Assembly (NCBI GenBank): GCA_964626085.1
Contig: CAZVCQ010000002.1
Location: 1 to 27,755, forward strand
Length of the DNA: 27,755 nucleotides
Direction: 5' to 3'
Source: an uncultured bacterium
GTDB lineage: Bacteria > Hydrothermota > Tepidihabitantia > Tepidihabitantales > Tepidihabitantaceae
In this document: one piece after another, positions 11,995 through 27,755 of the stretch
Position numbering within the stretch: the stretch's first letter is position 1
How the letters are laid out: each line of letters opens with the position of its first letter
Made by a program: the position numbers and the translations under genes
Notes under the pieces: model-generated
Database searches by the model: none
Told to the model about the DNA's origin: nothing
Seen by the model: the letters and a program-made list of their open reading frames with translations, nothing else

Positions 11995-12022
11995 TATACG
12001 CCTACAAGCTGGAGGTTAGACT

Positions 12023-13177
12023 ATGGCGCATCATTCCAAGACCGCGCTCGATTTCGGCCCTGAGTTCAGGGCGAGACTCCGTGAGCTACGGAAGCGACGG
12101 GGGCTTACTCTACGCGCGATGGCGCTGCTGATGGATCGGCAGGGCGTGGGCGCGCACGTACAGCTTGCCCGACTTGAGAAAAGCCAAGTGAAGTATCCGT
12201 CCATCAATCTGATTGCCGACTATCTGCGGGCGTGCGGCGCTGGCTTCGAGGACCTGCTCGACTTGCTGAAGCCGCACACCTCGCAACGACCGGTGCTGAA
12301 GCAGAAGGGTGACGCGGCGGTGGCGGAGTTACTCAAGAGCCTGCCTAAGGCAGAGCAGCGTGCAATGCTCCGGTGGGAGAGGGCCACCGTTGCGGCACGT
12401 GAGGAGAAGGCGGCGGCACAGCCGGAGAAAAAGAAACCGCGGGTCGAGACAGGTAGGCAGCGGGTGTTTCGTATCGTCTGGTCGTTCATCCACGCAAACT
12501 GGAACGAGGTCTTCGAGCAGAAGCTGTACGAGGCGATGCTCAAGGTCAAGGATGAGGTGCCGCGGAGCCGGCGCAGGGACGCCTGCAACTATGGCCGCAG
12601 GTTCTTCGGAATCCTGACCCGGCACTACCGGCACGAGGCGCGCCGAGCGAGCGCTTTGGAGCGGGTCGAGCGCGATACAAGAAAGGCTGGATTCTCGAAC
12701 CAGGTCGTGGCGATGCTGCGCGATGCGGCGAAACAGGCCTACAGGGAACTGCTCTTGTCGGGACGGCTCGACTGGGAGCCGACTCCGGAGGAACTGGTGA
12801 AGAACAGGGGCCGTGCGCCGAAGGTTGAGAGGGCCGAGACACGGCTCGAGATGGACGAGGTCAGGCCGATTGAGGCAGCCAACAAGATGCTTGGCGTCAT
12901 CGATGCGCTGGCGGTGCAGGAAGTCGGTGCGCGTCTGGAGAAGTTGAAGATTGCCCACTACCACGGCCGGGATTACTACATCTTCTGGATTCACGGACTG
13001 ATTCCCATCGCCTACGCGCATGGAACGGATTCGCCGGAGTGGAAAGCAGAGGTCGAGAAGTGGGTGCCGAAGCTGCACGACCCTGAGTTTGCGCGCGAGG
13101 CGGCCAAGATGGTTGCGGACATCTACAACCGCTGGAAGGTCAAGCTGCCGCCGAAGCCGGGCCGAACCGAGGATTGA
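12023..13177 (+). CDS. XRE-family HTH protein with a long uncharacterised alpha-helical C-terminal region
   Basis: N-terminal RARLRELRKRRGLTLRAMA...LARLEK....PS...IADYL.A.G is an XRE HTH. Strong RBS. The remaining ~290 aa were not recognised. Confidence 0.85.
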   Translation: MAHHSKTALDFGPEFRARLRELRKRRGLTLRAMALLMDRQGVGAHVQLARLEKSQVKYPSINLIADYLRACGAGFEDLLDLLKPHTSQRPVLKQKGDAAVAELLKSLPKAEQRAMLRWERATVAAREEKAAAQPEKKKPRVETGRQRVFRIVWSFIHANWNEVFEQKLYEAMLKVKDEVPRSRRRDACNYGRRFFGILTRHYRHEARRASALERVERDTRKAGFSNQVVAMLRDAAKQAYRELLLSGRLDWEPTPEELVKNRGRAPKVERAETRLEMDEVRPIEAANKMLGVIDALAVQEVGARLEKLKIAHYHGRDYYIFWIHGLIPIAYAHGTDSPEWKAEVEKWVPKLHDPEFAREAAKMVADIYNRWKVKLPPKPGRTED

Positions 13178-13179
13178 AC

Positions 13180-13249
13180 CACAAAGACACAAAGGCACAA
13201 GGAACACCGGGCCGGAATCGACCGCAGATGACGCAGATTGCGCCGAGCG
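13180..13249. repeat. Adjacent 8-bp and 9-bp tandem repeats
   Basis: cacaaaga cacaaagg cacaagga (13180-13203) and cgcagatga cgcagattg cgccgagcg (13223-13249). Confidence 0.65.
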
Positions 13250-13297
13250 GGGACATGACCCAATTCCGCCGGGGAATTGGGATCGTGGCCCAAGCCC
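13249..13297 (-). repeat. Palindromic element, intergenic copy (same family as 26123-26168)
   Basis: Minus strand reads gggcttgggccacgatcc-caattccccggcggaattg-ggtcatgtcccc. Confidence 0.8.
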
Positions 13298-13332
13298 ACA
13301 TGAGCAGAGCAGGCCCGATTTGAATTCTAGCC

Positions 13333-13360
13333 TTGACAGCGCCGGAGTCCGGATTAGCAT
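13333..13360 (+). promoter_or_regulatory. Sigma70-type promoter for the secreted-protein array
   Basis: TTGACA-16 bp-TAGCAT. Confidence 0.65.
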
Positions 13361-13408
13361 GTCAGCTAGGAAACCGTGAATTCCGAGACGGGCGGCCCGA
13401 GCCGCGGC

Positions 13409-13480
13409 CGGCATCTGCCCTCGGACTTATTCAGGGTTCGGGCCGTGGGCAGTACGCAGTCCGCCGTGGGCCGTCACCAA
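13409..13480 (+). pseudogene. Decayed remnant of a C-terminal sorting domain in the 5' leader of the array
   Basis: RHLPSDLFRVRAVGSTQSAVGRHQ aligns without gaps to the array CTD end (RHLAPGVYFVR from 24329; VRAVSRELSAVSGHK from 24821). It contains five GC-starting heptamers (13442-13476). Confidence 0.55.
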
Positions 13481-13489
13481 GGAGGTAGT

Positions 13490-14326
13490 ATGAAGTTTGC
13501 ATCTGTGCTGTTGGCTATCGGCTGCGTGGTTTCGACTCTCTCGGCCCAGTGGTTGGAAACGACGATATCATTGCCCGACAGCTCCTTGCCTAATGACCTG
13601 TGCTACAACCCGACCGACAACAAGGTCTACGCTGCCAACTGGGGTACGGACAACGTTACGGTCATCGACGGCGCGACCAATACGATCGTCGCCACCATTC
13701 CGACCGCCGCCGAGCCGTCGTACTTCTGCTACAACTCACAGGGCAACAAGGTCTACTGCACGCACTACACGTCCGGCCTGGTTTCGGTCATCGACGCCGG
13801 GGTCGACACCGTGCTTGTGGTGATTCCTGCGGGCCCGTATGCGAGCAGCATCTGCTACAACCCGACCGACAATAAGGTCTACTGCCCGAGCTCCATGAAC
13901 AACAGCGTCTACGTGATCGACTGCGCGGCCGACACGGTCATCGCCAGGATCGCCTGCGGCGACTATGCCTGCGCGATGGTGCACAACCCGGTGCAGAACC
14001 GGGTCTACGTGATGAACCTAAGCGCCAATTCCATCTCGGTCATCCGCGACAGTACGCCGGCGGGAATCGAGGAAGGCCCGATGCCGCGAGCTGCCAGACT
14101 CCGGACGGCTGCCACCATCGTGCGCGGAGAGCTGCGCATGGAGGCTGGCTCAAGCGCAAGCTCAAGCCCAAGCTGGCTGCTGGACGCGGCGGGGCGGAGG
14201 GTCATTGAGCTTCAGGCCGGCGCGAATGACGTGTCCAACCTCGCGCCCGGCGTCTATTTCGTGCGTTCGGAGCCAGGCGCGGTGCTTGATGCGTTAAGCG
14301 CCACCAAGGTCGTGATTCAGAGGTAG
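13490..14326 (+). CDS. Secreted YVTN/YncE-like beta-propeller protein (short form) with C-terminal sorting domain
   Basis: GGAGG RBS and signal peptide at ATG 13490, CYNPTDNKVY...V.VIDG repeats, CTD TIVRG...LLDAAGRRV..L..GANDVS.LAPGVYFV...KVVIQR. Confidence 0.88.
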   Translation: MKFASVLLAIGCVVSTLSAQWLETTISLPDSSLPNDLCYNPTDNKVYAANWGTDNVTVIDGATNTIVATIPTAAEPSYFCYNSQGNKVYCTHYTSGLVSVIDAGVDTVLVVIPAGPYASSICYNPTDNKVYCPSSMNNSVYVIDCAADTVIARIACGDYACAMVHNPVQNRVYVMNLSANSISVIRDSTPAGIEEGPMPRAARLRTAATIVRGELRMEAGSSASSSPSWLLDAAGRRVIELQAGANDVSNLAPGVYFVRSEPGAVLDALSATKVVIQR

Positions 14327-14338
14327 GGAGGAATGACA

Positions 14339-15904
14339 ATGCTGAGAGCGTGTTCATTGCTGTTTGTTTTCGCCGCCGCGGCCATCGCTCAGCCCGATAC
14401 TACCTGGGTGCGCCGCTACGACGGCCCGGGCCACGGCTGGGACGAACCGTCCGTGATGAGGCTGATCGGCGACCGGGTATACGTGGCGGGCCAGAGCCGG
14501 GGCGACGGTTCGGGCTACGACTACGCAACCGTGGTCTATGACCTCGACGGCGACGATCTTTGGTCCGCTCGGTACAACGGGACCGGCAACGACCGTGACG
14601 AGATCACGGATCTCGTTGTCGACAGCGACGGCAACGTCATAGTGACCGGGTACAGCGAGGCCCCCGGCGGCAACTCGAACTGGGTGACCATCAAGTACGA
14701 CCAGAACGGCGACACGCTCTGGCTGGGGCGTCACAACTCAGGCGCCGGGGCTGCGGGAGTAGCGGTCGACGACTCCGGCAACGTCTATGTCACCGGCGGC
14801 GCGGGCAGCTACCCCTACGTCCGCCTCAATACCATTCGCTACGGTCCGGATGGAACCCAGCACTGGCTCGCCGAGTACTACCCGCCGGCACCGAACCGGG
14901 TCAACACGCCACGCGCCATCGCCATCGACCCCAACGGCTGCCCGATTGTCGCCGGCGGAGGCACGAGAGACTCCACCGGCCACGACATCCTCATCATCAA
15001 GTACAACCCGGTGACCGGCGAATCGCTCTGGGTCGCCCGCTACACGTCGTCCGGCGACGAAGGCGATGCCGCAGGCGCGATGGTTCTCGACGCCTCCGGG
15101 AACATCTACGTCACCGGGTATTTCCACGGCGGGACAACCGACCGGGACATCATCACGATGAAGTACTCGCCCGACGGGGCGCTGCTGTGGCTGGACACCT
15201 ACGACGGGCCGAACAACGGTAGTGACGCCGGGGTGGATATCGAACTCGGCGAGGACGGCAACATCTATGTCGCCGGCAACGTCAACCGCGGGTCGTCCAA
15301 CGACGATATGGCAGTCATTAAGTACAACCCGGCGGGAGAGACGCTCTGGGTCAGGCTGTACAACTACCCGACAAACCGCACGCACCGGGCCTACGCCCTC
15401 GCACTCGACGGCGAGAACAACGTCTACGTCTGCGGCTATCTCTGGACCGGGACCTCCTACGACTACCTGACGGTCAAGTACGACACCGACGGCACCGAAT
15501 TGTGGTATGTCCGCTACAACACCTACGAAGGCCAGGAGGACGAAGCCTACGACATCGCCCTCGACGACGCCGGTTTCGTCTACGTCACCGGGCGGGCCAA
15601 GGACTCGCTTAACAACTTCGACTACGCCACCATCAAGTACAGCCAGTTCAGCGGCATCGCGGCAGAGCCGAAGGTGGAAGTCCGAAGAACGAACTGCCCG
15701 ACCATCGTCCGCGGTGTCCTGTTCCTGGACGGGGGCTGTCCCCACACCGGGGCTGTCCCCGAGGCTGCCCTGCTCGACATCTCCGGCCGCAAGGTGCTCG
15801 ACCTCAAGCCGGGCGCCAACGATGTCCGCCACCTCGCGCCCGGTGTCTATTTCGTGACACAGCAGAACATCGGCTGCAGCAAGAAGATCGTTGTGCGAGA
15901 ATAG
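14339..15904 (+). CDS. Secreted SBBP-type beta-propeller repeat protein with C-terminal sorting domain
   Basis: Repeats of W..RY.G....D......D..GN.YVTG......D..TIKY. The second ATG (14339) fits the RBS spacing better than 14333. Confidence 0.88.
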   Translation: MLRACSLLFVFAAAAIAQPDTTWVRRYDGPGHGWDEPSVMRLIGDRVYVAGQSRGDGSGYDYATVVYDLDGDDLWSARYNGTGNDRDEITDLVVDSDGNVIVTGYSEAPGGNSNWVTIKYDQNGDTLWLGRHNSGAGAAGVAVDDSGNVYVTGGAGSYPYVRLNTIRYGPDGTQHWLAEYYPPAPNRVNTPRAIAIDPNGCPIVAGGGTRDSTGHDILIIKYNPVTGESLWVARYTSSGDEGDAAGAMVLDASGNIYVTGYFHGGTTDRDIITMKYSPDGALLWLDTYDGPNNGSDAGVDIELGEDGNIYVAGNVNRGSSNDDMAVIKYNPAGETLWVRLYNYPTNRTHRAYALALDGENNVYVCGYLWTGTSYDYLTVKYDTDGTELWYVRYNTYEGQEDEAYDIALDDAGFVYVTGRAKDSLNNFDYATIKYSQFSGIAAEPKVEVRRTNCPTIVRGVLFLDGGCPHTGAVPEAALLDISGRKVLDLKPGANDVRHLAPGVYFVTQQNIGCSKKIVVRE

Positions 15905-15913
15905 GAGGATTCG

Positions 15914-18454
15914 ATGAAAGTAACTGCGTTCTTTCTGATTCTGATGGCGGCGTTTGTCGCGCTGCCTGAGCCTGCATCTGCAGAGGAATTCCTGATTGAC
16001 GCAAGCTTCGCGTACGAACCTTGCCCGGGCGAGCAGGAACTTCCCGCCGTGGCGTTCGACGGTACCAACCACCTCGTGGTCTGGCGCAACTTCGACGGCA
16101 GTCAGTATGACATCCTCGGCGTCAGGGTCAGCAGCGGCGGCGAGGTTATGGACTCCGCTTTCATCGCCATCGCGGCCGACAGCGGACACCAGCAGGCCCC
16201 GGCGGTCGCGTACGACGGAACGAACTGGCTCGTGGTCTGGCAGGATGCCCCGGCCGGCAACCAGATTCGCGGCGCCAGGGTAGGGCCTGACGGCACCATC
16301 CTTGACCCGGACGGATTTCCAATCCTGGTCGGAGGTGGCAGGCAGCAACCGGCTGTTGCCTTTGACGGAGCCAACTACATGGTCGTATGGGCCGAGATGC
16401 GTGGAGGTAATCGTGATGTTCTCGGTGCCCGCGTTACGCCGGGCGGCGCGGTCCTTGATAGCGCTGGTTTCGTCATATCCGGTGCGGCCAATCATCAGCA
16501 GGCCCCCTCGGTCGCGTTCGGCGCCTCGGGTTATCTCGTTGCCTGGGAGGACTTCCGGAGCGGAAGCGGCTTCGATTTGTACGCGGCCCGGGTGACAACG
16601 GCGGCGCAAGTGCTCGACACAGCCGGGATTGTCATGTCGGCGGCGGCAAATACGCAGTCCGGCTCCGCGGTCGCGTTCGACGGGACCAACTATCTTGTCG
16701 CTTGGGACGACATACGCAACGGCTACAATCCGGATGTATTCGCGACCCGCGTCAGCCAGGACGGTACGGTGCTCGACCCGGACGGAATCGCGGTTTCCAG
16801 AACCCCCTACGGTGACCAGTGGGGGGTGGCGGTGGCGTTTGACGGGACGAACTTCCTTGCGGTCTGGTCCGACTACTACCTTCGTGAAATCTACGGTGCA
16901 CGGGTTTCGTCCGCCGGCGCGGTGCTCGACACGCTCGGGTTCGCCGTCTCCCACGGCTACGACAACTCCGACCTCTACCCGGCAATAGGGTTCGACGGGG
17001 CCGACTACTTCGTCGCATGGCAGTACAAGTACAACACCCACTACGACATCCACGCCGCGCGGGTCACGCCCGGCACCACGGTGCTGGACCCGACCGGCAT
17101 CGTCATCACCCGCGGCGCCCCGGTGGCTTACTACGAGTTCAACCCGGCGGTCGCCTCGAACGGTACCGACTACCTCGTCGTCTGGGATGACTCCCGTCGA
17201 AACGAGGCCGACATCTTCGGCGCGCGGGTCAGCCAGGGCGGCAGCGTGCTGGACCCGACCGGCATCGCGATATCCTTCGCTGAGGAGAACCAGGACTATC
17301 CCTCAGTCGCCTTCGGCAGTTCGAACTACCTTGTGGTCTGGGAGGACGAGCGCGACGGTGGCAGCGAGGACATCTACGCCGCGCGGGTCAGCCCGAACGG
17401 AATGCTCCTCGACCCGGCCGGCATCGCGATATCCATGGCCGACGGCGTGCAGGAGGATGCGCAGGCTGCGTTTGACGGGACCAACTTCCTGGTAGTGTGG
17501 CAGGACTACCGGAATACGCACTCCGACATATACGGGGCGCGTGTCAGCCCGGGCGGCCTCGTGCTTGATACTGCGGGCATACCGGTTGCGGGTCTGCAGT
17601 CGGCAGAGGAAGACGCTTCGGTTACGTTCGGCGGCACCAACTACCTGGTGGTCTGGGAGGACTACCGGGATGCGGACGCTGACATCTATGCCGCACGGGT
17701 GAGCCCGGCTGGCTCGGTGCTGGACCCAACCGGGTTCGCGGTCGCAACGGCAGGAGAGGACCAGTGCTTTCCGGTGGTCGCGTTCGACGGAACCAACTAC
17801 CTGGTGGTATGGCATGATGCGCGGGGCGCTTCAGACAACGACATCTACTGTGCCCGGGTCACGACGGCGGGCTCGGTGCTCGACCCGGACGGCATCGCGG
17901 TGTGCACCTCGGCTGAGAACCAGGAGTACGCGAGTGTCGCGTTCGACGGGACCGACTACCTGATTGCCTGGGAGGACTACCGCAACGATCCAGATACGTG
18001 TGACGTCTACGGCGCGCGGGTCAGTACAGCGGGCGCCGTGCTCGCACGCTTCCCGGTGTCGGTCCACGCGAACTGGCAGTGCGACCCGGCTCTTGCCCGA
18101 GGCGCTGGCAGCCAGGTCCTGACCGTGTTCACCGGTTGGGTCGACGAGCACCAGGGTAGCAACTACGACGCCGAGCGAACCTGGGGCACATTCGACATGG
18201 CTGGCGTAGCCGAGCACCCGACGTCCGCGGTGACCGGCTCACTGCCCGTTGCGACCGTCGTGCGTGGAATCCTGCGGCTGCCCGGAGCCCCGACCTCGGT
18301 CCCTAGGTCCTTTGCCTGTCTGCTAGATGCCTCCGGCCGGAAGGTGTTTGATCTGGAGCCCGGGCCGAACGATGTGAGCCGGCTGGCGCCGGGCGTGTAC
18401 TTCGTCAGAACCAATCAAGAGAAGCGACTGCAGAGAATAGTCATCGTCAAATAA
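15914..18454 (+). CDS. Large secreted repeat protein (PAVAFDGTNYLVVW repeats, probable beta-propellers) with C-terminal sorting domain
   Basis: About 12-13 repeats of P.VAFDGTNYLVVW.D.R....DIYGARV...G.VLDP.GI; signal peptide and CTD. Confidence 0.88.
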   Translation: MKVTAFFLILMAAFVALPEPASAEEFLIDASFAYEPCPGEQELPAVAFDGTNHLVVWRNFDGSQYDILGVRVSSGGEVMDSAFIAIAADSGHQQAPAVAYDGTNWLVVWQDAPAGNQIRGARVGPDGTILDPDGFPILVGGGRQQPAVAFDGANYMVVWAEMRGGNRDVLGARVTPGGAVLDSAGFVISGAANHQQAPSVAFGASGYLVAWEDFRSGSGFDLYAARVTTAAQVLDTAGIVMSAAANTQSGSAVAFDGTNYLVAWDDIRNGYNPDVFATRVSQDGTVLDPDGIAVSRTPYGDQWGVAVAFDGTNFLAVWSDYYLREIYGARVSSAGAVLDTLGFAVSHGYDNSDLYPAIGFDGADYFVAWQYKYNTHYDIHAARVTPGTTVLDPTGIVITRGAPVAYYEFNPAVASNGTDYLVVWDDSRRNEADIFGARVSQGGSVLDPTGIAISFAEENQDYPSVAFGSSNYLVVWEDERDGGSEDIYAARVSPNGMLLDPAGIAISMADGVQEDAQAAFDGTNFLVVWQDYRNTHSDIYGARVSPGGLVLDTAGIPVAGLQSAEEDASVTFGGTNYLVVWEDYRDADADIYAARVSPAGSVLDPTGFAVATAGEDQCFPVVAFDGTNYLVVWHDARGASDNDIYCARVTTAGSVLDPDGIAVCTSAENQEYASVAFDGTDYLIAWEDYRNDPDTCDVYGARVSTAGAVLARFPVSVHANWQCDPALARGAGSQVLTVFTGWVDEHQGSNYDAERTWGTFDMAGVAEHPTSAVTGSLPVATVVRGILRLPGAPTSVPRSFACLLDASGRKVFDLEPGPNDVSRLAPGVYFVRTNQEKRLQRIVIVK

Positions 18455-18463
18455 GGAGGTACC

Positions 18464-19840
18464 ATGAAGTTCGCAACCGTGCTGCTGGCCGTATGCTGTT
18501 TGCTGTCAGCCACGTCGGCACAGTGGCTGGAGACGACGATATCATTGCCCGCCAGTTCCTGGCCCAATGATCTGTGCTACAACCCAACCGACAACAAGGT
18601 CTACTCTGCCAACTACAACATCGGCAGCATCACAGTCATCGACGCCGCGACCAATGCGATCGTCGCCACCATTCCGACCGCCGCCGAGCCGTCGTACTTC
18701 TGCTACAATTCACAGGGCAACAAGGTCTACTGCACTCACTACAGCGACAGCCTTGTGACGGTAGTCCACGGCACCGGTGACAGCGTCATAACGACGTTTC
18801 GAGCCGGACTGAACGCAAGCAGCATCTGCTACAACCCGCAGGACAACAAGGTCTATTGCCCGAATTCCTCAAGCGACAGCGTCTTCATAGTCGACGCTGC
18901 GGCCGACACCGTCATCGCCGTCGTCGGCACGGGCGACATTCCGAAGCAGCTCTGCTACAATCCGACCGACAACAAGGTCTACTGCTCGAACGTCGGCGAC
19001 AGGACCGTGACGGTGATTGACGGCGCGGGCGACACCGTCATTGCTACGGTCGCGGCCGGCTCCGCGCCCGGCGTCATGGTCCACAATGTCCTGAATGACA
19101 TGGTCTACGTCGCCAACGCGGGCGGTGACAGCGTCATGGCTATCGATGGCGCGGCGGACACCGTCATCGCCACCATCCCGACCGGCGACGTGCCCCGCGC
19201 CCTGTGCTTCAATCGGGAGTACAACAAGGTCTACTGCGCGAACGCCGGCAGCGACAACATCTCGGTCATCGACTGCGCCACCAACGCTGTCATCGCCACG
19301 GTCCCGGCGGGCGACGCGCCCTTTGCGATTCTGAGCAACGACGTCAACAACACCGTGTACTGCTCGAACTCGACCAGCGACGAAGTCGTGGTTGTCGACT
19401 GTGCCGCCGATTCGGTCATCGCCAGAATCGCGTGCGGCGACTACGCCAGCCTGATGGCGCACAACCCGGTGCAGAACCGCGTCTACGTGCTGAACATAGA
19501 CGACAATTCCATTTCGGTCATTCGCGACAGTATGCCGGCGGGAGTCGAGGCGGACCCCACGCCGCAGGCCGCAAGTCACAAGCCCGCGGCTACTATCGTC
19601 CGCGGAGTGCTGGACCTGGGAGTAGGCAGTAGACAGCAGGCAGTAGACAGGGCGGCACTGTCTGACAGGGGTCGCTGCGGCCAACTGCTGGATGCGACGG
19701 GGCGGAAGGTCGCGGAGCTTCACCCCGGCGCGAATGATGTGAGCGGGTTGGCGCCGGGCGTGTACTTTGTCCGTGTGCAGCTGGCCGTCGGCCCCGCGCT
19801 GTCAGCCGCAAGCAGCTACAAGGTCGTAATCCACAAATAG
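18464..19840 (+). CDS. Secreted YVTN/YncE-like beta-propeller protein (long form) with C-terminal sorting domain
   Basis: Paralog of the 13490 gene with about four extra CYN..NKVYC repeats. Confidence 0.88.
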   Translation: MKFATVLLAVCCLLSATSAQWLETTISLPASSWPNDLCYNPTDNKVYSANYNIGSITVIDAATNAIVATIPTAAEPSYFCYNSQGNKVYCTHYSDSLVTVVHGTGDSVITTFRAGLNASSICYNPQDNKVYCPNSSSDSVFIVDAAADTVIAVVGTGDIPKQLCYNPTDNKVYCSNVGDRTVTVIDGAGDTVIATVAAGSAPGVMVHNVLNDMVYVANAGGDSVMAIDGAADTVIATIPTGDVPRALCFNREYNKVYCANAGSDNISVIDCATNAVIATVPAGDAPFAILSNDVNNTVYCSNSTSDEVVVVDCAADSVIARIACGDYASLMAHNPVQNRVYVLNIDDNSISVIRDSMPAGVEADPTPQAASHKPAATIVRGVLDLGVGSRQQAVDRAALSDRGRCGQLLDATGRKVAELHPGANDVSGLAPGVYFVRVQLAVGPALSAASSYKVVIHK

Positions 19841-19849
19841 GGAGGAATG

Positions 19850-21061
19850 ATGACCAAGAACGTATTTCTGTTGGTGCTTGTGCTGGCGGTCGCCGGGACC
19901 GCACGGGCTGATTCGCTCAACTGCCGGGGGCTCGGGCGCTTTGACACACCGGGTCTGGCCGTTGGTGTGGCGGTGTCCGGGAACTACGCATACGTGGCGG
20001 ATGGGGATTCGGGGTTGCGTATCATCGACGTGAGTAATCCGGGAAGTCCGTTTGAGGCAGGGCACCAGGCAACGCCTGGCTATGCCCGCCGTGTGGCGGT
20101 ATCCGGGAACTACGCATATGTGGCGGCCGCGGATTCGGGCCTGCGCATTGTTGACGTAAGCAGCCCGCAAAGCCCGCATGAAGCCGGGCACTACGTCACG
20201 CCGAGTTGGGCCTATGTCGTGGCGGTGTCGGGCGACTTTGCCTACGTTGTGGACGAAGATACGCTGCGCATCATTGACGTGAGTAATCCGCAGAGCCCGG
20301 CTGAGGTCGGGCGTTTCGGCGACCCGGGCTTTGCCTTTGCCGTGGCCGCGTCCGGGAACTACGTCTATTTGGCGGACGACAACCAGGGACTGCGCATCAT
20401 CGACGTGAGTAACCCGCAAAGTCCGTACGAGGCCGGCTACCACATCACATCGGACTGGGCCTATGGCGTGGCGGTATCCGGCAGCTTCGCCTATGTGGCT
20501 GCCCGCTCCGCGGGACTGTGCATCATCGACGTTAGCAACCCGCAGAGTCCGTATGAGACCGGTTCCTACGCCGTCATGGCCACCGGCGCGGCGGTGTCCG
20601 GCAACTTCGTCTACGTCGTGGACGGTTCTGCAGACCTGTACGTCATCAACGTGGGTGACCCGCAGAGCCCGAGTGAGGCGGGGCACTATGGCACTCCGGG
20701 TACCCCATGTGTCGTGGCCGTGTCCGGGAACCTCGCCTATGTCGCGGACTGGGATTCGGGCCTGAGCATCATCGAGTTCTACGGTGCGGGGATTGAGGAA
20801 GTGCCGCTCGCCGAAGTACGAGCGGCGGATCCGATGCCGACGGTTGTGCGTGGGGTGCTGGTGCTCGGCGCTGTAGGCAGTAGACAGAATACAGAATACA
20901 GGGGAGGACTTATGGATGCGGCGGGGCGGAAGGTGATGGAGCTTCACGCCGGCGCGAACGATGTGAGCGGGCTGGGCCCGGGCGTGTACTTTGTGCGTGC
21001 GGAGCAGGCACAAGCCCAAGCTCAAGCGCAGGCAATCCGCAGGGTCATGATCGTGAGATAA
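19850..21061 (+). CDS. Secreted LVIVD-repeat protein with C-terminal sorting domain
   Basis: About seven repeats of [11 protein letters not shown]....GL.IIDVSNP.SP.E.G. The start could be 19847 or 19850. Confidence 0.9.
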
Positions 21062-21070
21062 GGAGGACTC

Positions 21071-23953
21071 TTGAAGCGTAGCATTTTCATCGCGCTGTTG
21101 GTTTCGTTCACTTCCGCGCGGGCGCCGGTCGAGAACTGGGTCAGTCACTACAACCGGGTCAACAGCGACGACGAGGGTCTCGTCCTTGCGACTGATGCCG
21201 CGGGTAGCGTCTACGTTGCCGGTCGGAGCTGGGGACCGAACCACGACCCGGCCCTCCTGACGGTGAAGTACGATTCGACCGGTGGCGAGGTCTGGACCGC
21301 GCGGTTCGACGAGGCGGGCATCGACGCCCCGGCCGCGATTGCGGTTGATGCGTCCGGCAACGTCTACGTGACCGGGCAGGCGGGGCAGGCGGTGAACAAG
21401 TCCGACCTCATCACGTTGAAGTATTCGCCGTCCGGTGCGGAGTTGTGGCGCAGCCGCTACTCGGATCCGTCCGACGCGAGCGACGTGGCGGCGGGGATTG
21501 CGCTCGCGCCCGACGGTGCGGTCTACGTCCTCGGTTCGAGCTGGATGCCCGGGGGTTGTGCGGTCGTGCTCGTCCGCTACAGCTCGACCGGGACCGAGGA
21601 GTGGGTGAGCCGGTTCTTCCCTAAGGATTCAACCTGGAACTGCGGCCGGGCGGTGGCGGCGGACGCGGGCGGCGCGTGGGTTGCCGGCGCTTCGGACGGC
21701 AGCTACCTCGTGATGCGTTACCGCGCGAACGGTGACACCGCCTGGGTCCGGTACTACAGCGGGGCCGGACAGGGCGACGCCCGCGGCCTGGTGCTTGACG
21801 GCTCGGGCGTGGTCGTCACCGGCCAGCTCGTCACGTCGGGCATGGACCTTGACTATGTGACGGTGCGGTTCGATTCGAGCGGGCAGAGCGACTGGTCCGC
21901 GGTCTACGACGGTCCGGCCCACAGTCACGACCAGGCCTACGCAATCTGCCGCGATTCGGCGGGCGGCATCTATGTCACCGGCCGCACCCAGGCTTCGCTG
22001 CGCAACGTCGACTACGCCACCGTCAAGTACTCGCCGTCCGGCAGCCAGCGCTGGGTCGCGCTCTACTCCGGTCCGGATACCGCCGGAACCGACGTGGCCT
22101 GGGCGGTGGCTTCGGGTCCGCACGGCCGGGTCTGCGTCACCGGCCAGAGCTGGTCCGACGTGGCGGCTGAGGATTTCGACTACGCCACCGTCTGCTATGA
22201 CACCGGCGGTACCCGGCGCTGGGTCGACCGCTATTCCGGGACCGGCGGGGGACGCGACGAGGCGGTCTGCCTGGGGTTCACGCGGTCCGGGCGGGTGGTG
22301 GTCAGCGGCCGCAGCCTCAATGCGTCCGGGGATTTCGATTTCGTCACGATCGCTTTCGACACCGCCGGCGGCCGGGCGTGGCTGGCGACGTACGCCGGGC
22401 CGGGCGGTCCGGGCACCGGCGGCGAGTCCGGGCTCGCAATCGGCCGCGACCGGTCGAGCAATCTCTATGTGTCGGGCGGAGACGCGCAGGACGTCATCAC
22501 CGTGAAGTACGACGCCGGGGGCAATGAGCTGTGGCAGCGGGTTTATGACGGCGGCAGCCGCGGCATCGACGCCTGGCGGGGGATGACCGTGACCGAGGAC
22601 GGCGACGTCCGGGTCCTGTCCCGGAGCCAGGTCCCGCTGCCGGCTCCGCTGACAACCGTCTACGCGGTCGCGCGCTACTCACCGGACGGCGACGAACGCT
22701 GGGTCGCAACCTACTTCGGCCCGGACAGCACCGACGCGGACCCGGTCGCGCTCTGCACCGACGCCTCGGGAAACAGCTACGTGACCGGCGGCGTGCTCGA
22801 CTCGTTCACCGTCGCCTGGCACACCATCAAGATCGACTCGACCGGCGCCCGGCGGTGGCTCGCGGTGATGAGCCGGACGGATACACTCCAGCTTTACTCC
22901 AACCCGCGCTGCATCGCGGCCGACGACAACGGCTACGTCTACGTCGGCGGCGAACAGGACAGCCTCGGCGGGTTCGAAGACATGATGCTGATTCGCTACC
23001 GGCCCGACGGCGGCGAGGACTGGCGCGCCCGCTACGCCGGCCCGGGCCTCGGCATCGACCTGCTCCAGTGCCTGGTCGTGGACGCGGCGGGCAACGCCTT
23101 TGCCAGCGGCCAGAGTTGGGACTCCGTCACCGGCTACAATTTTGCGACCATCCGGTTCACCCCGACCGGCGAGACCGCCTGGGTCCGACGCTACGCCGGG
23201 CCGGGCGGGCTGAGCAATGAAGACAAGCCGTGCGCCGTGGCGCTGGACGACTCGGGCAACGTCCTCGTGACCGGGTCGAGCTGGGCGGATTCCTCGATGG
23301 ACTACCTCACCGTCAAGTACGCGCCGGACGGGCAACAGCTCTGGACCGCGCGCTACGACGGTTCCGGGCATCACACCGACGTGCCAACCGCGGTCACGGC
23401 CGACCGCGCCGGCAACGTCTACGTCACCGGCTACGGGTGGCAGGATGGAACGCTCTGGGATTATACCACCGTGATGTACTCGGCTGGCGGCGCGGAGCGT
23501 TGGTCGCTCAGGTATCACGGAACCGGCAACTACTACGACAAGTCGCTTGGCCTCGTTGTCGAGGACTCGATGCACCTATGGGTCACCGGTGCGAGCGTGG
23601 CCGCGGGCCAGAACTCAGACATGGTGACCATCTACTACGGTCCGGACCCGGGCCTGGCCGGTGCCGAACCGGTGTCGATGCGGGCCCGGCTGATGGTTCG
23701 TCCCGGCATCGCGACGCGTCGGGTCAGCGCCGCGCTCTTTCTGCCGACCGGCGGATCGGTCCGGCTCGGCATCTACGATTGCAGTGGCCGGCTCGTCCGG
23801 TTGTTCGTCGAGGCCGAACTGCTGCGGGGACGTCATGACTTCTCCTGGAACGGCGTCGACGAACGCGGCCGCCGCTGCCCGGCCGGCGCTTATTTCATCC
23901 GGGTGAACACGCCGTCCGGCCCGGCGGTCGAACGCGTCGTCTTCATCCGCTAG
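21071..23953 (+). CDS. Large secreted SBBP-type beta-propeller repeat protein with FlgD-Ig-like C-terminal domain
   Basis: Tandem W...Y.G...D....A.D..GN.YVTG repeats. The CTD IYDCSGRLVR...FSWNGVDERGRRCPAGAYFIR differs from the other CTDs. TTG start with AGGAGG RBS. Confidence 0.88.
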   Translation: MKRSIFIALLVSFTSARAPVENWVSHYNRVNSDDEGLVLATDAAGSVYVAGRSWGPNHDPALLTVKYDSTGGEVWTARFDEAGIDAPAAIAVDASGNVYVTGQAGQAVNKSDLITLKYSPSGAELWRSRYSDPSDASDVAAGIALAPDGAVYVLGSSWMPGGCAVVLVRYSSTGTEEWVSRFFPKDSTWNCGRAVAADAGGAWVAGASDGSYLVMRYRANGDTAWVRYYSGAGQGDARGLVLDGSGVVVTGQLVTSGMDLDYVTVRFDSSGQSDWSAVYDGPAHSHDQAYAICRDSAGGIYVTGRTQASLRNVDYATVKYSPSGSQRWVALYSGPDTAGTDVAWAVASGPHGRVCVTGQSWSDVAAEDFDYATVCYDTGGTRRWVDRYSGTGGGRDEAVCLGFTRSGRVVVSGRSLNASGDFDFVTIAFDTAGGRAWLATYAGPGGPGTGGESGLAIGRDRSSNLYVSGGDAQDVITVKYDAGGNELWQRVYDGGSRGIDAWRGMTVTEDGDVRVLSRSQVPLPAPLTTVYAVARYSPDGDERWVATYFGPDSTDADPVALCTDASGNSYVTGGVLDSFTVAWHTIKIDSTGARRWLAVMSRTDTLQLYSNPRCIAADDNGYVYVGGEQDSLGGFEDMMLIRYRPDGGEDWRARYAGPGLGIDLLQCLVVDAAGNAFASGQSWDSVTGYNFATIRFTPTGETAWVRRYAGPGGLSNEDKPCAVALDDSGNVLVTGSSWADSSMDYLTVKYAPDGQQLWTARYDGSGHHTDVPTAVTADRAGNVYVTGYGWQDGTLWDYTTVMYSAGGAERWSLRYHGTGNYYDKSLGLVVEDSMHLWVTGASVAAGQNSDMVTIYYGPDPGLAGAEPVSMRARLMVRPGIATRRVSAALFLPTGGSVRLGIYDCSGRLVRLFVEAELLRGRHDFSWNGVDERGRRCPAGAYFIRVNTPSGPAVERVVFIR

Positions 23954-24111
23954 TTCCGTCGACCGTCCGGTCTGGCGATTCGCCCAAACCCGTTCACCGC
24001 CAGGTAAGCCTGGAATGCGATGGTCCGTGCGGCGGCGAGCGGGAGGTTCTCTTGAGCACCGGACTGCTTGCGGCGGTGCTGGCAGCAGTCCGTTCGAAGC
24101 AGCGTGCCCTG

Positions 24112-24244
24112 TATCACTGGATCGGCAAGGACCGGACAGGAAAGGAGGTGTGCGGGGGTGTACCTGGCCGAGTTGGACAGAGGAGACCGGTCGGAGACCG
24201 TCCGACTGGTGAAGATGCGCTCGCCGGGTTCGGGAGTACGATAG
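24112..24244 (+). pseudogene. Frameshifted orphan FlgD-Ig-like CTD remnant
   Basis: YHWIGKDRTGKEVC(G), then a frameshift in the G5 run at 24154-24158, then VYLAELDRGDRSETVRLVKMR...TAG followed directly by GAGG. Confidence 0.65.
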
Positions 24245-24277
24245 GAGGAAAGGGTGAGAGCATTCGCAGCATCGAGC

Positions 24278-24305
24278 TTGACAGCGGTGCGGCGGGGACT
24301 ATGAT
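24278..24305 (+). promoter_or_regulatory. Internal sigma70-type promoter
   Basis: TTGACA-16 bp-TATGAT, 23 nt before ATG 24329. Confidence 0.65.
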
Positions 24306-24328
24306 GAGCCGAAATCGACAGGGCTAGG

Positions 24329-24811
24329 ATGAAACGACATTCACAACTCCGCGCCAACATCACTATCGTCGTGGGCATCGTCGTGCTGTGCGTCAGCACC
24401 GCCACCGGCGAGCTGTGGAAGACGACCGACACCGGGACGATCTGGCTGCGGGAGAACACCTGCACCAACTGGGCGCTGTACGATGCCGGTTTCCCGGAGC
24501 CGGGGACCGGCTACGCGGTCGGCGCGGTCGATGTAGTCATCAAGACCGGCTACGGCGGGGCGGTCGAGGATGAATGCCCGCTGCAGTGGCCGCACTCCCC
24601 TATGCCTGCGACCTTGCTCTCCGGAGCCGCGTTCAGACTGCCGGGCAACCGAGCGGCTCGATTCCTCGACATCTCAGGCTGGAAGGTCGCAGAGCTGGTA
24701 CCGGGCGTGAACGACGTCCGGCATCTGGCGCCCGGCGTGTACTTTGTGCGTCTGGCATCAAGCGTAATGCGTGATGCGTCGGGCGTGTCCAAGGTCATGA
24801 TTCTGAAATAG
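24329..24811 (+). CDS. Short secreted protein: signal peptide, single BNR/YCF48-like repeat and C-terminal sorting domain (probably an internally deleted gene)
   Basis: LWKTTDTG..W and FP..GTGYAVG...V.IKTG.GG followed by a full CTD. Confidence 0.7.
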   Translation: MKRHSQLRANITIVVGIVVLCVSTATGELWKTTDTGTIWLRENTCTNWALYDAGFPEPGTGYAVGAVDVVIKTGYGGAVEDECPLQWPHSPMPATLLSGAAFRLPGNRAARFLDISGWKVAELVPGVNDVRHLAPGVYFVRLASSVMRDASGVSKVMILK

Positions 24812-24820
24812 GGAGGAACT

Positions 24821-26323
24821 GTGAAGCGTATGGTCGTCGTTGTGCTGCTGCTGGCGCTGGGAATTGCCGTGGCCTGGGGTCCGGACACCAGGCTGACAGA
24901 CAATTCCTATTCCGACAATACCTACTGGAGCTGCCAGCGCCGCGTCGCCGTGGACTCGGGAGGCCGAATCCACGTCATCTGGTACGTGATGAACTCCGGG
25001 CTCGGTACCTATCGGTTCCAGGTCTACTACAAGCGGTTCAATCCCGGCACGGGCTGGACCCAGGACACAATGCTCAGCGGGGACCTCTATGCCGACAGCA
25101 CCCACAACAAGTACCCGGCGATTGCGGTTGATTCGTCCGGCCTTGTCATCGCGGCCTGGGGCAGCGACACGTCGGAGAATGCCGACGCCTTCATCTACTA
25201 CAAGACCTGTCTGCCTGAGGGCTCAGGCAACGGCGGCTGGGACGCAACCTCGCGGCTCCTGTCCAGCTCGGGTCCTGACTTCACCCGCGAATGTCCCAAC
25301 CTTGCCGCGACGCCGGATGGTCACGTCCACGCGGTATGGAAGGAGGTCAAGCCGGGCGGCGGCATCTGCGTGGCCTATCGCGAGCTTATCGACACGGTCT
25401 GGCAGGCGCAGGCTGACCTCGAACTGAACTCCAACTACAAGGTCTACCCGGCAGTCGCGGGCGGGCCGGACAACAGCGTGCACGTGGTCTGGCACGGCCG
25501 CAGCGGCCCGAGCGGCTACTACAACGTCTGGTACAAGGCCCGGAACGACACGACGTGGGGAGCGATGGAGAACGTCTCTAACGGCGCCCGGCATCAGATG
25601 AATCCCTCAGTCACCGCAAACCCGGTGACGAGCGAACCGCACGTGCTCTGGCAGGGGCAGGACGCGAACGGGACCGGGCGAGCCATCCACGCGTATCGGA
25701 CCGCGGCCGGCTGGCAACCGCGCGACACGGTATCCGAGCCCGGCCTCGAATACGGGCAGGGCACCGGCCAGATTGCGTTCACTCCGGATGGGCTTGGCCA
25801 CGCGGTCTGGGAAGGCGAGAGCGATTCCTCTCCAACCGTCGGCCAGATTCGCTACAGCCGGCGGTCGGTCATGGGAACCTGGAGCGCGCCGGAGAACATC
25901 ACAGCGGCAACGAACACGCGCGAGCGCCCGTCCATAGCAAACGGCGGCAACTCCGCCTCGCCGTTCGACCTCCATCTTGTCTGGTCCGACTACCGCGACG
26001 GCAACTCGGAGATGTACTACAAGCATGATTCCATCGTCCTGGCCATCGGTGAGGGCGTGAGACCGGCGGTCTGGAACACGTGGCCCGCGGCGAGTCTTGT
26101 CCGCGGTGTGCTGGTACTGCGCGGGCTTGGGACACGATCCGGATTGTCGGACAATCCGGTCATGTCCCGCGCAGTGCTGCTGGACGCGGCGGGGCGGAAG
26201 GTCATAGAGCTTCATGCCGGTGCGAATGATGTGAGCCGGCTGGCTCCCGGCGTCTACTTCGTCCGGGCCGTCAGCCGTGAGCTGTCGGCTGTGAGCGGTC
26301 ACAAGGTCGTGATTCAGCGGTAG
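24821..26323 (+). CDS. Secreted beta-propeller protein (HVVW repeats, BNR/sialidase-like fold) with C-terminal sorting domain
   Basis: Repeats of P.IA.D..G..HVVW....YY....W; GTG start with GGAGG RBS; CTD. Confidence 0.85.
   Translation: MKRMVVVVLLLALGIAVAWGPDTRLTDNSYSDNTYWSCQRRVAVDSGGRIHVIWYVMNSGLGTYRFQVYYKRFNPGTGWTQDTMLSGDLYADSTHNKYPAIAVDSSGLVIAAWGSDTSENADAFIYYKTCLPEGSGNGGWDATSRLLSSSGPDFTRECPNLAATPDGHVHAVWKEVKPGGGICVAYRELIDTVWQAQADLELNSNYKVYPAVAGGPDNSVHVVWHGRSGPSGYYNVWYKARNDTTWGAMENVSNGARHQMNPSVTANPVTSEPHVLWQGQDANGTGRAIHAYRTAAGWQPRDTVSEPGLEYGQGTGQIAFTPDGLGHAVWEGESDSSPTVGQIRYSRRSVMGTWSAPENITAATNTRERPSIANGGNSASPFDLHLVWSDYRDGNSEMYYKHDSIVLAIGEGVRPAVWNTWPAASLVRGVLVLRGLGTRSGLSDNPVMSRAVLLDAAGRKVIELHAGANDVSRLAPGVYFVRAVSRELSAVSGHKVVIQR
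26123..26168 (+). repeat. Palindromic element inserted in frame within a CTD
   Basis: gggcttgggacacgatcc-ggattgtcggacaatcc-ggtcatgtccc, read as GLGTRSGLSDNPVMS. Confidence 0.8.
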
Positions 26324-26332
26324 GGAAGTGCC

Positions 26333-26929
26333 ATGAAGTCGAGACTTGTCCTGGTCGGGGTTAGTTGTCTTATGGCCGTGACTGTCCCGCGTGTTCAGGC
26401 GCAGGAAAGGTCGCGAGCGGAGGTGTATGCGCTTGAGGGGCTCGGCACATTGCCCGGCATCGCCGGATGCGGTTGTCTGGGAGTGGGCTTTGCGTTTGTG
26501 GGGGCGTGGATCTGGTGGGGGAACGACAACCCGGGTCAAAACTCGGGTGCGGGTGCGTATTCACTGGCGCTGGTCTCTGCCGCCGCCTTGCCGGCTGCCG
26601 CAGCATACGGTGCGGCCAAGGTCGGTGAAGGACTCAGCGAGGGCGGGTCGAGGGGCTGGGCCTTCGGCGGAGCATACGTTGGGGCGCTGGCACTCGGCGG
26701 CCTTGGTTTCTTCTTGCACCGTCAGGCGGTAGGAGCTTTCATCGGGTGGGCCGCCGGCTCAATGGTGGGAGCGGTGGTTGGCTACAACATCGGGATCAAG
26801 CATGACGTGTCGCCCTTCGGCTTCGACAGCAGGCTGCGGCCGCCGAGCGTGGCGCTGACGAGTGTCGAGCTGCCTGACCATTCGGTTGAGTATGGGGTGA
26901 AGGTCCAACTGGCCGGGCTGAGGTTCTGA
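26333..26929 (+). CDS. Hypothetical Gly/Ala-rich membrane protein
   Basis: Signal-like N-terminus, several glycine-zipper-like hydrophobic segments, and a C-terminal Phe. Confidence 0.75.
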   Translation: MKSRLVLVGVSCLMAVTVPRVQAQERSRAEVYALEGLGTLPGIAGCGCLGVGFAFVGAWIWWGNDNPGQNSGAGAYSLALVSAAALPAAAAYGAAKVGEGLSEGGSRGWAFGGAYVGALALGGLGFFLHRQAVGAFIGWAAGSMVGAVVGYNIGIKHDVSPFGFDSRLRPPSVALTSVELPDHSVEYGVKVQLAGLRF

Positions 26930-26941
26930 GTCCCGCCGGGC

Positions 26942-26970
26942 TTGACGTCAGGCAAGGAGGCGGCTAACAT
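26942..26970 (+). promoter_or_regulatory. Sigma70-type promoter for the TonB-dependent receptor gene
   Basis: TTGACG-17 bp-TAACAT. Confidence 0.6.
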
Positions 26971-26995
26971 AGGCAGTATCGATTAAACACCGTGT

Positions 26996-27755
26996 TTGTT
27001 CTCTAACCTCCTAACAATAGTCGCCCTGGTCGGACAGACCGGGCTGGTGCGTGGAACCATCGCGGATAGCGCTTCGGGCGTTGCCGTTCCGGGCGCGAAT
27101 GTCGTGTTGGTCGGCGCCGGCATCGGGGCATCGACCGGAGAGAATGGCGGGTTCGTGCTTGGTCCGGTCAAGGCTGGCCCGAGTCATCTCGTCGCCAGCC
27201 ACATCGCCTTCGAGCCGGAGACCGTCGCGGTCGCAGTTCCCGTCAACGGCGTGGCGCGGGTCGAGTTCAGGCTGCGGCCGAAGGTGATACCGGTGCCGGG
27301 CGTGAGCGTGAAGTCGCGGCGCGAGCGCGGCGAGCAGCAGGTGAGCGTCCGCGAAATCACTTCTGAGCAGTTGTCGCGGAACGCGGGCGGGTTCGTGCAG
27401 GACCCGGTGCGGTCGCTGAGCTTCCTGCCCGGGGTCGCGCCCAGCGCGCGGGGCGAGTGGAGCGGGACCTATGCGGTGCGGGGAGGGGAGACCGACGAGA
27501 GTTCTGTCTGGTTCGGCAACACTGAGCTGCTCTGGCCCTATCACCTGCTGGGGTTCTCGTCGGTGCTGAACCCGGACATCGTGGAGAAGATCTCTTTCTA
27601 TCCCAGCGTGTTCCCATCGCGTTATGGCGGCGCGCTGTCGAGCGTGGCTATCATGCAGCCGAAGCAGCTCGAGCGAGGGGAGGGATTCTGGGCCTATGAT
27701 CCGATGAACCTGAAGGGGGCGTACGTCGGGAACCTCGGAGACATCGACTTCCTCG
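26996..27755 (+). CDS. TonB-dependent receptor, N-terminal part (runs off the window; absent from the ORF track)
   Basis: TTG 26996 reads MFSNLLTIVALVGQTGLVRGTIADSASGVAVPGANVVLVG (carboxypeptidase-regulatory-like domain). The plug follows: DPVRSLSFLPGV...YAVRGG..DES...NPDIVEKISFY...FPSRYGGALSSV. Confidence 0.88.
   Translation, partial: MFSNLLTIVALVGQTGLVRGTIADSASGVAVPGANVVLVGAGIGASTGENGGFVLGPVKAGPSHLVASHIAFEPETVAVAVPVNGVARVEFRLRPKVIPVPGVSVKSRRERGEQQVSVREITSEQLSRNAGGFVQDPVRSLSFLPGVAPSARGEWSGTYAVRGGETDESSVWFGNTELLWPYHLLGFSSVLNPDIVEKISFYPSVFPSRYGGALSSVAIMQPKQLERGEGFWAYDPMNLKGAYVGNLGDIDFL

Follow-up and report, generated by a model that had tools for sequence, protein, structure and literature searches.

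A stretch of 27,755 nucleotides from an uncultured WOR-3 bacterium (contig CAZVCQ010000002.1 of assembly GCA_964626085.1), hereafter the window, contains two copies of a palindromic element of about 50 nt, one between genes and one read in frame within a gene for a secreted protein. The assembly as a whole contains at least 84 such elements, in housekeeping genes, in sorting-domain genes and in intergenic positions. We consider it probable that the element is a non-autonomous mobile palindrome of the class formed by repetitive extragenic palindromes (REPs) and terminal inverted repeat (TIR) families, served by Y1 (HUH) transposases that resemble REP-associated tyrosine transposases (RAYTs) and correspond to the TIRYT enzymes of TIRtrons.

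A repeat family with shared arms and variable interiors

The two window copies, A and B, have common ends and differ in their interiors, as a preliminary description had claimed and as the sequence confirms (Table 1). The left arm is GGGACACGATCC, with one A-to-C change in copy A, and the right arm, GGTCATGTCCC, is identical in both. Each interior is self-complementary (CAATTCC...GGAATTG in copy A, GGATTGTC..GACAATCC in copy B). The arms pair as GGGACA/TGTCCC, followed by a C·A mismatch, GA/TC, a bulged T and CC/GG. Each copy folds into a hairpin of about 18 bp that is stable on both strands, with folding z-scores of -1.8 to -6.2 depending on copy and strand; for the element strand of copy A, 8 of 200 shuffles matched its folding. 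The codon model detected no coding signal through copy A. Positions 25636-26416, which include copy B, are matched without difference by an independent DNA contig from a lake metagenome run. Another window match, at 22578-22622, has four arm mismatches and was set aside as chance.

The assembly (3.52 Mb, 661 contigs, 62% G+C, 75% complete) contains 74 exact left arms and 88 exact right arms, compared with 0.8 and 2.5 expected from base composition. These pair into 84 elements when up to two arm mismatches are allowed, and composite copies come on top. With such counts the likeness is not due to chance, and the genome-wide search proposed in the preliminary description thus uncovered a single palindromic family that is both intergenic and in frame, as that description had held from two copies. 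The core measures 39-43 nt, or about 50 nt with conserved flanks. Short copies (74 of 84) have cores of 39-45 nt and 58 distinct interiors, and about 10 of the 84 are longer variants of 62-81 nt with extra internal hairpins. In the genus of the window genome, conservation reaches beyond the core, as far as GGCTT on the 5' side and, less strongly, GCGCC on the 3' side; in WOR-3 copies the base preceding GGGACAC is T or C.

No Rfam 15 family matched anywhere in the window at the gathering threshold, and a full-text literature search with the arm sequences returned only unrelated primer matches. A ribozyme, a CRISPR remnant and an attC site were considered and rejected, given the non-conserved interior and the lack of arrays and core sites.

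Distribution across lineages

The arms were scanned for in one genome per species, and the lineages named here are those among the matches listed. Exact arms occur in metagenome-assembled genomes (MAGs) labelled WOR-3, Aminicenantes/Acidobacteriota, Armatimonadetes, Planctomycetota, Dehalococcoidales, Desulfocapsa, Syntrophobacterales, Alphaproteobacteria, Polyangiaceae, Actinomycetes and others. All 23 arm bases, including the mismatch and the bulge, are invariant across phyla, and their surroundings vary. All 10 sister species of the same genus carry the element, with 5-54 exact-arm copies each. Among 201 sampled WOR-3 genomes, matches were found in one family (f1) only, and five genera carry the element when the scan of relatives is added. 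Genomes are larger in the carrier genera, which have both the element and TIRYT genes (2.2-4.7 Mb), than in element-free genera of the same family and order (0.9-2.5 Mb).

Four genomes from other phyla hold 18-91 copies. Most copies in other phyla are located at the ends of open reading frames (ORFs), and outside WOR-3 the eight bases before most copies are complementary to the eight after. Nearly all of the 38 copies in one Aminicenantes genome (G032, JALHTW01) have a single interior, CAAATTCCGGAGAATTTG, and this uniformity suggests a recent burst from one master copy. Recognition of the element explains odd insertions and contig breaks in MAGs of WOR-3, Aminicenantes, Armatimonadota and Planctomycetota.

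Covariation of the stems

Covariation was evaluated in an alignment of 92 copies from the window genome and other lineages, with pairs counted on a structure that we specified. The inner stem has changes on both sides at 8 of 8 pairs, with 86% of cells paired, and the outer-flank helix shows double changes at all 8 of its pairs. None of 500 shuffles reached the observed covariation score, and all slid controls scored far lower. The ten arm pairs are invariant because copies were collected by their arms, and are therefore uninformative on covariation. Intragenic copies are no more decayed than the others and have kept their pairing at least as well.

An orthologous copy in ileS, common to seven species, shows paired changes at a single site: the window genome has GAATCGTC/GACGATTC, one sister has GGATTGTC/GACAATCC, which amounts to two compensated positions, and two other sisters are intermediate, with one mismatch. 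The encoded residues change as a result, which indicates that the constraint is on pairing, or that copies convert one another, and not that the peptide is conserved. The preliminary description had proposed selection on the hairpin. The conserved interior pairing on which that proposal relied extends to the further copies, and the inner stem covaries strongly, but pairing could also stem from copy-to-copy conversion or from the process that makes the copies. Orthologous copies with stepwise paired changes, as in ileS, make it testable whether selection or conversion maintains the pairing.

A candidate transposase family

As noted previously, the window encodes no mobilising enzyme. Y1 transposase matches are found only on two other contigs of the genome (C279 and C434), where three PF01797 (Y1_Tnp) genes score above the PF01797 cut-off. 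Of 30 relatives, 11 carry the element, and precisely these 11 have strong homologues of the genes; the 19 element-free relatives have none. The search for a RAYT or HUH gene suggested in the preliminary description thus led to RAYT-like Y1 transposases that are encoded outside the window and, among relatives, are found together with the element. Their HUH motif (NHVHL) and catalytic tyrosine (VRY with Tyr115) align with those of E. coli TnpA-REP (PDB 4er8).

Every TIRYT gene examined is flanked by inverted repeats of about 20 nt that start with GGGGACAC or GGGAC, often with an outward TTGAC. The motif GGGGACAC, which fits GGGGWSAS, is present beside the transposase genes, and most copies from other phyla have it too. 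In the C279 type, the inverted repeat is similar to the left arm of the element plus half of its interior. At an Aminicenantes locus (L161), in a genome with 18 element copies, the arms that bracket one transposase gene are nearly identical to those of the element. They also show its asymmetry: a C/T change and a one-base bulge distinguish the left repeat from the right one, just as they distinguish the two arms of the element. In structure the element looks like a transposase unit reduced to its two inverted repeats, with the gene missing from between them. A candidate recognition motif of 23 bases common to several phyla makes the TIRYT class biochemically testable.

Whole TIRYT units also lie inside or directly against sorting-domain coding sequence in sister genomes (L166 in G009:C3, L184 in G002:C40, L176 in G006:C21, and L171). 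At G000 C54:1050, an element copy whose left arm has been lost lies directly against the right inverted repeat of a C434-type unit. Given these positions, the units seem to target the same places as the element, and perhaps the elements themselves.

In-frame copies inside genes

Copies were classed as intragenic when they had an open frame and same-frame coding signal on both sides under a codon log-odds model trained on long ORFs of the window genome. By this model 38 of 84 copies are intragenic, or 41 of 84 with homology-confirmed cases added; since the same model also classes 66% of random windows as coding, depletion of the element from genes is only mild. Hosts identified by NCBIfam equivalog matches are MnmA (two copies), UvrC, TrmFO, IleS, SucC, MetG and HdrA (an HdrA-like protein); NCBIfam also identifies a TolB-like protein, which holds three copies. 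The element is present in either orientation within these unrelated housekeeping genes, and it would add 13-18 residues if translated. Of the element's six frames, five are open. Usage is -2 (13 copies), +1 (11), +0 (10), -1 (3) and +2 (1), and none of the copies uses frame -0, the sole frame with a stop (TGA), an outcome with a probability of about 6e-4 if frames were uniform.

In-frame copies appear to be read as extra protein loops. The resemblance to Rickettsia palindromic elements (RPEs) that the preliminary description had pointed out holds for the in-frame copies in housekeeping genes and sorting domains. Because core lengths of 40 and 43 nt are not multiples of three and the hairpin could serve as a processing signal, we also considered whether in-gene copies are cut from the transcript like introns, or bypassed, and hence untranslated. 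We judge this highly improbable: the frame is open through every intragenic copy, with same-frame coding signal on both sides, and the stop-bearing frame is never used, a form of selection expected only under translation. Metatranscriptome contigs (three RNA runs and one DNA run, positions 12000-27755, with thin coverage) are weakly consistent with this judgement, in that no listed joint skips the element and RNA-library contigs do contain element copies; the RNA contigs that touch element positions came from other copies only.

These positions imply that, in a lineage that is free-living and uncultivated, a REP-like hairpin with a candidate tyrosine transposase can reside to a large extent within genes, where it would lengthen loops of essential enzymes and the secretion tails of dozens of surface proteins.

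Filled and empty sites in sister species

Natural filled and empty alleles are available in UvrC, SucC and IleS. The uvrC site is empty in seven sister genomes (IR-TVxG-xxDF) and filled in three, and in all three the TVxG codons are replaced by the element. The orientation is minus in the window genome and its closest relative, and plus, at the same junctions, in a more distant species. In the closest relative the interior has been swapped for a nested palindrome, with arms and junctions unchanged. The uvrC segment that was replaced is a small imperfect palindrome in its own right, similar to the right arm of the element. The sucC site is filled in the window genome only and empty in seven, with 48 nt replacing 18 nt, and the ileS site is filled in seven genomes and empty in four. 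At the first mnmA site the element is present in the window genome only, four same-genus orthologues being empty and four having other repeats; the second is common to the window genome and one relative. No target-site duplication was found in the clean filled/empty comparisons, where 12-18 nt of host sequence are replaced for a net gain of 30-39 nt.

The palindromes could also have spread through host processes and without a dedicated transposase (template switching at hairpins during replication, microhomology-mediated replacement or gene conversion between copies), with the Y1 transposases merely co-resident. The absence of target duplication, the likeness of the replaced uvrC segment to the right arm, the swapped interior between fixed arms and junctions, and the unrelated heptamer arrays and other palindromes in loops of sister species would all be compatible with spread of this kind. 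We nevertheless regard it as unlikely, because the invariance of the arm bases, mismatch and bulge across phyla argues for a sequence-specific protein, the co-occurrence with TIRYT genes is exact among the relatives searched, and the transposase flanks have the same architecture as the element.

A distinctly unlikely variant that keeps the transposase is that a hairpin-specific Y1 recombinase exchanged the element into short pseudo-palindromic stretches of coding loops, in place of simple insertion. It would fit the filling of the same uvrC codon boundaries in opposite orientations by independent events, the replacement of host bases without duplication, the swapping of a resident interior with arms and junctions fixed, and the presence of both transposase units and mini-elements in sorting-domain genes. 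If so, the system would diversify secreted-protein tails and other proteins by replacing their loops, and would not be selfish DNA alone.

The empty sites also bear on the idea that the hairpin is, rather than selfish DNA, a cis-acting motif under selection that many loci have recruited, sorting-domain genes among them. Such a motif could bind a protein, guide RNA processing, stabilise the transcript or signal a pause. Sister species are empty at the same sites with no sign of a substitute, and copy number ranges widely (5-54) among species of one genus. Stable hairpins from both strands, the well-kept pairing of intragenic copies and the several copies directly after the stop codon of sorting-domain genes, a classical REP position, could be accommodated by such a motif; its occurrence in either orientation in unrelated housekeeping genes, together with the lack of an Rfam match, makes it very unlikely in our view.

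Loops of mnmA (L136, L138, L140, L143) and trmFO (L203-L209) in sister species hold other in-frame repeats, namely inverted arrays of tandem heptamers in which, for example, CAGATTA faces AATCGGA or GAACCAG. These arrays look like a further repeat system, distinct from the element, that occupies the same permissive loops.

Proposed mode of movement

The invariant foot of the stem, GGGACA/TGTCCC, is probably the recognition site of a protein; the C·A mismatch and bulged T after it account for the inequality of the two arms. Pairing alone would be required of the inner stem and, outside WOR-3, of the outer stem as well, and these could therefore drift by paired changes. By analogy with RAYT and IS200/IS605 systems, the element probably moves in trans as a single-stranded DNA hairpin, possibly through one of the TIRYT paralogues. 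Since five of six frames are open, copies whose net length is divisible by three would survive where they arrive in permissive surface loops, and the survivors are presumably translated into the extra residues noted above, as in RPEs. In this WOR-3 genus the permissive loops would include one loop of a sorting domain like those of the type IX secretion system (T9SS).

Several points weigh against assignment to a TIRYT-served family. The NCBIfam REP-transposase model NF047646 scores the candidate enzymes at 55-73 bits, below its cut-off of 80. The 75%-complete window genome yielded no transposase gene bracketed by exactly these arms, the nearest (on C279) having related but different repeats. 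The co-occurrence of element and transposase represents few independent lineages, as the relatives are not independent of one another. Replacement of host sequence without target duplication departs from what Y1 'peel and paste' transposition produces in the textbook case. Finally, translation of the in-frame copies is presumed, and metatranscriptome coverage is thin.

Comparison with known systems

TIRtrons are RAYT-like genes flanked by TIRs with the motif GGGGWSAS, and their TIR-associated tyrosine transposases have been named TIRYT (Di Nocera et al. 2013, PMC3733652). Families of TIR repeats are moderately abundant and include dimers, and REPs have been found inside replication, repair and tRNA-synthetase genes (PMC3733652). 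The system described here resembles TIRtrons and REPtrons in its Y1/HUH genes with inverted repeats fitting this motif (here GGGGACAC), in dispersed repeats that form head-to-head dimers folding into hairpins, in the presence of several transposase paralogues and repeat families per genome, and in intragenic copies in repair and tRNA-synthetase genes. Unlike REPs, the element has no GTAG or CGTC tag, and around half of its copies (38-41 of 84) are intragenic, whereas published REPs are mostly intergenic. It differs from both REPs and TIRtrons in the constant inequality of its two arms (mismatch and bulge), in having the same 23 arm bases in MAGs of many phyla, and in its concentration in one sorting-domain loop. 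The kind is already in print, as intragenic REPs and TIRtrons (PMC3733652), and what is unusual here is the high in-gene frequency.

RPEs, the classic example of in-frame elements, are palindromic repeats located in frame in unrelated housekeeping genes, in loops and apparently compatible with protein function; those of the RPE-1 type are about 100-150 bp long and confined to Rickettsia, and the two papers that describe RPEs here do not name a transposase (PMC10969869, PMC3733652). The element is like them in being in frame in unrelated functional genes, but it is smaller (about 50 bp), its hosts are free-living WOR-3 bacteria and members of other phyla, and there is a candidate transposase family for it.

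The hairpins derived from IS200/IS605 (palindrome-associated transposable elements, PATEs) and integron attC sites are imperfect, with extrahelical bases or mismatches that tell the strands apart, and are recognised as folded single-stranded DNA. The element is similar in being an imperfect hairpin with a mismatch and a bulge. In contrast to attC sites, its arms have no core sites (RYYYAAC / GTTRRRY), and its copies are single and dispersed, with no cassette arrays and no integrase. In contrast to IS200/IS605, the transposase units here have terminal inverted repeats.

The sorting-domain host and its loop

The ORF that hosts copy B has positive codon log-odds on both sides of the copy in the same frame, and reads it in frame 0 as residues 435-450 (GLGTRSGLSDNPVMSR). 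A weak match to TIGR04183 (T9SS type A) in this ORF begins at the residue following the element; 14 of 16 tested paralogues match this model, all under the cut-off (best E 5e-4). An AlphaFold2 model of the protein tail has a beta-sandwich core in which 10-residue blocks have a mean pLDDT above 90. The element-coded residues (36-49 of the model) are coil, with block means of 65 and 61 and values below 50 at residues 39-42. The model predicts that they form a low-confidence loop in a confident beta-sandwich, which would be a tolerated location. Foldseek searches with the model of the C-terminal domain (CTD) gave weak Ig-like matches, and the T9SS CTDs 8glk_D, 8qb1 and 7pq4 at E of about 0.1.

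About 85 paralogues of this CTD are present in the genome. The loop is hypervariable, roughly 8-23 residues long and mostly 12-14, and as this holds in all paralogues they were unusable as empty alleles for defining element boundaries. The element occupies the VRGVLxL/LLDxxGRKV loop of at least 14 paralogues, in three combinations of frame and orientation, and several of these copies have frame and interior in common. We conclude that there were several independent arrivals in addition to spread with the gene family. At least five further copies are located directly after the stop codon of sorting-domain genes.

The copies with common frame and interior would be expected if the likeness were chance or merely paralogy of the sorting-domain gene family, and some spread with that family is evident. 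As a general explanation it is already refuted by the arm counts (74-88 against fewer than 3 expected), by copies in other phyla and by the unrelated host genes; intergenic copies and the three frame and orientation combinations within the loop also speak against it.

The same loop in other paralogues (window positions 14062-21058 and genome-wide) contains short in-frame heptamer or hexamer tandem repeats, for example of the GACCGAR, CAAGCN and CAGTAGA types. Other palindromes, of the GGGGCTGTCCCC type, also fill the sorting-domain loop and are read in frame.

Table 1. Positions of the element copies, their parts and the host features (window coordinates unless a contig is named)
Feature	Position	Strand	Description
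Copy A	13245..13297	minus	Intergenic, between ORF 12023-13177 (helix-turn-helix protein) and ORF 13376-14326 (beta-propeller with sorting domain)
Copy A, core	13250-13291	minus
Copy A, flank GGGCTT	13297-13292	minus
Copy A, left arm	13291-13280	minus
Copy A, interior hairpin	13279-13261	minus
Copy A, right arm	13260-13250	minus
Copy A, 3' flank CGCTC	13249-13245	minus
Copy B	26123..26173	plus	Intragenic, in ORF 24821-26323
Copy B, core	26129-26168	plus
Copy B, flank GGGCTT	26123-26128	plus
Copy B, left arm	26129-26140	plus
Copy B, interior hairpin	26141-26157	plus
Copy B, right arm	26158-26168	plus
Copy B, 3' flank GCGCA	26169-26173	plus
Host gene of copy B	24821..26323	plus	BNR/PDIAV-like secreted protein with divergent T9SS-like C-terminal sorting domain
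Sorting domain (CTD)	26090..26320	plus	Element fills the loop between strands VRGVLVL and LLDAAGRKV
Composite copy	G000 C114:2079-2172
Composite copy	G000 C32:3755
Composite copy	G000 C87:4660
Composite copy	G000 C148:5491
Composite copy	G000 C244:1128-1218
Composite copy	G000 C401:2647
Composite copy	L192		uvrC of G009

Variant, composite and solo forms

In the composite copies (Table 1), the arms enclose a nested GGGGACAGTCC/GGTACAGTCCCC palindrome from another family. Variants of 67-70 nt with GGCCNNNNNGGCC and CTGTCGGACAG hairpins were found on contigs C25, C38, C59, C148, C233, C257 and C290. Five copies have a second right arm, GGTCATGTCCC or a near copy of it, 3-8 bases after the first (G000 C3:7873, C358:1299, C605:486, C630:122 and C269:3273), and a partial left arm precedes the element on C3, C41 and C27. 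These doubled right arms and partial left arms look like nested or abortive events.

No unpaired arms lie 0.5-1.5 kb apart in the window genome, where only solo GGGGACACGATAC motifs without a gene were found. These motifs are one base off the element's left arm. Solo motifs of the form GGGGACACGATAC..(about 20 nt)..GCGTCAA, with no transposase gene behind them, are located at G000 C130:448, C241:138, C383:1186 and C552:1821.

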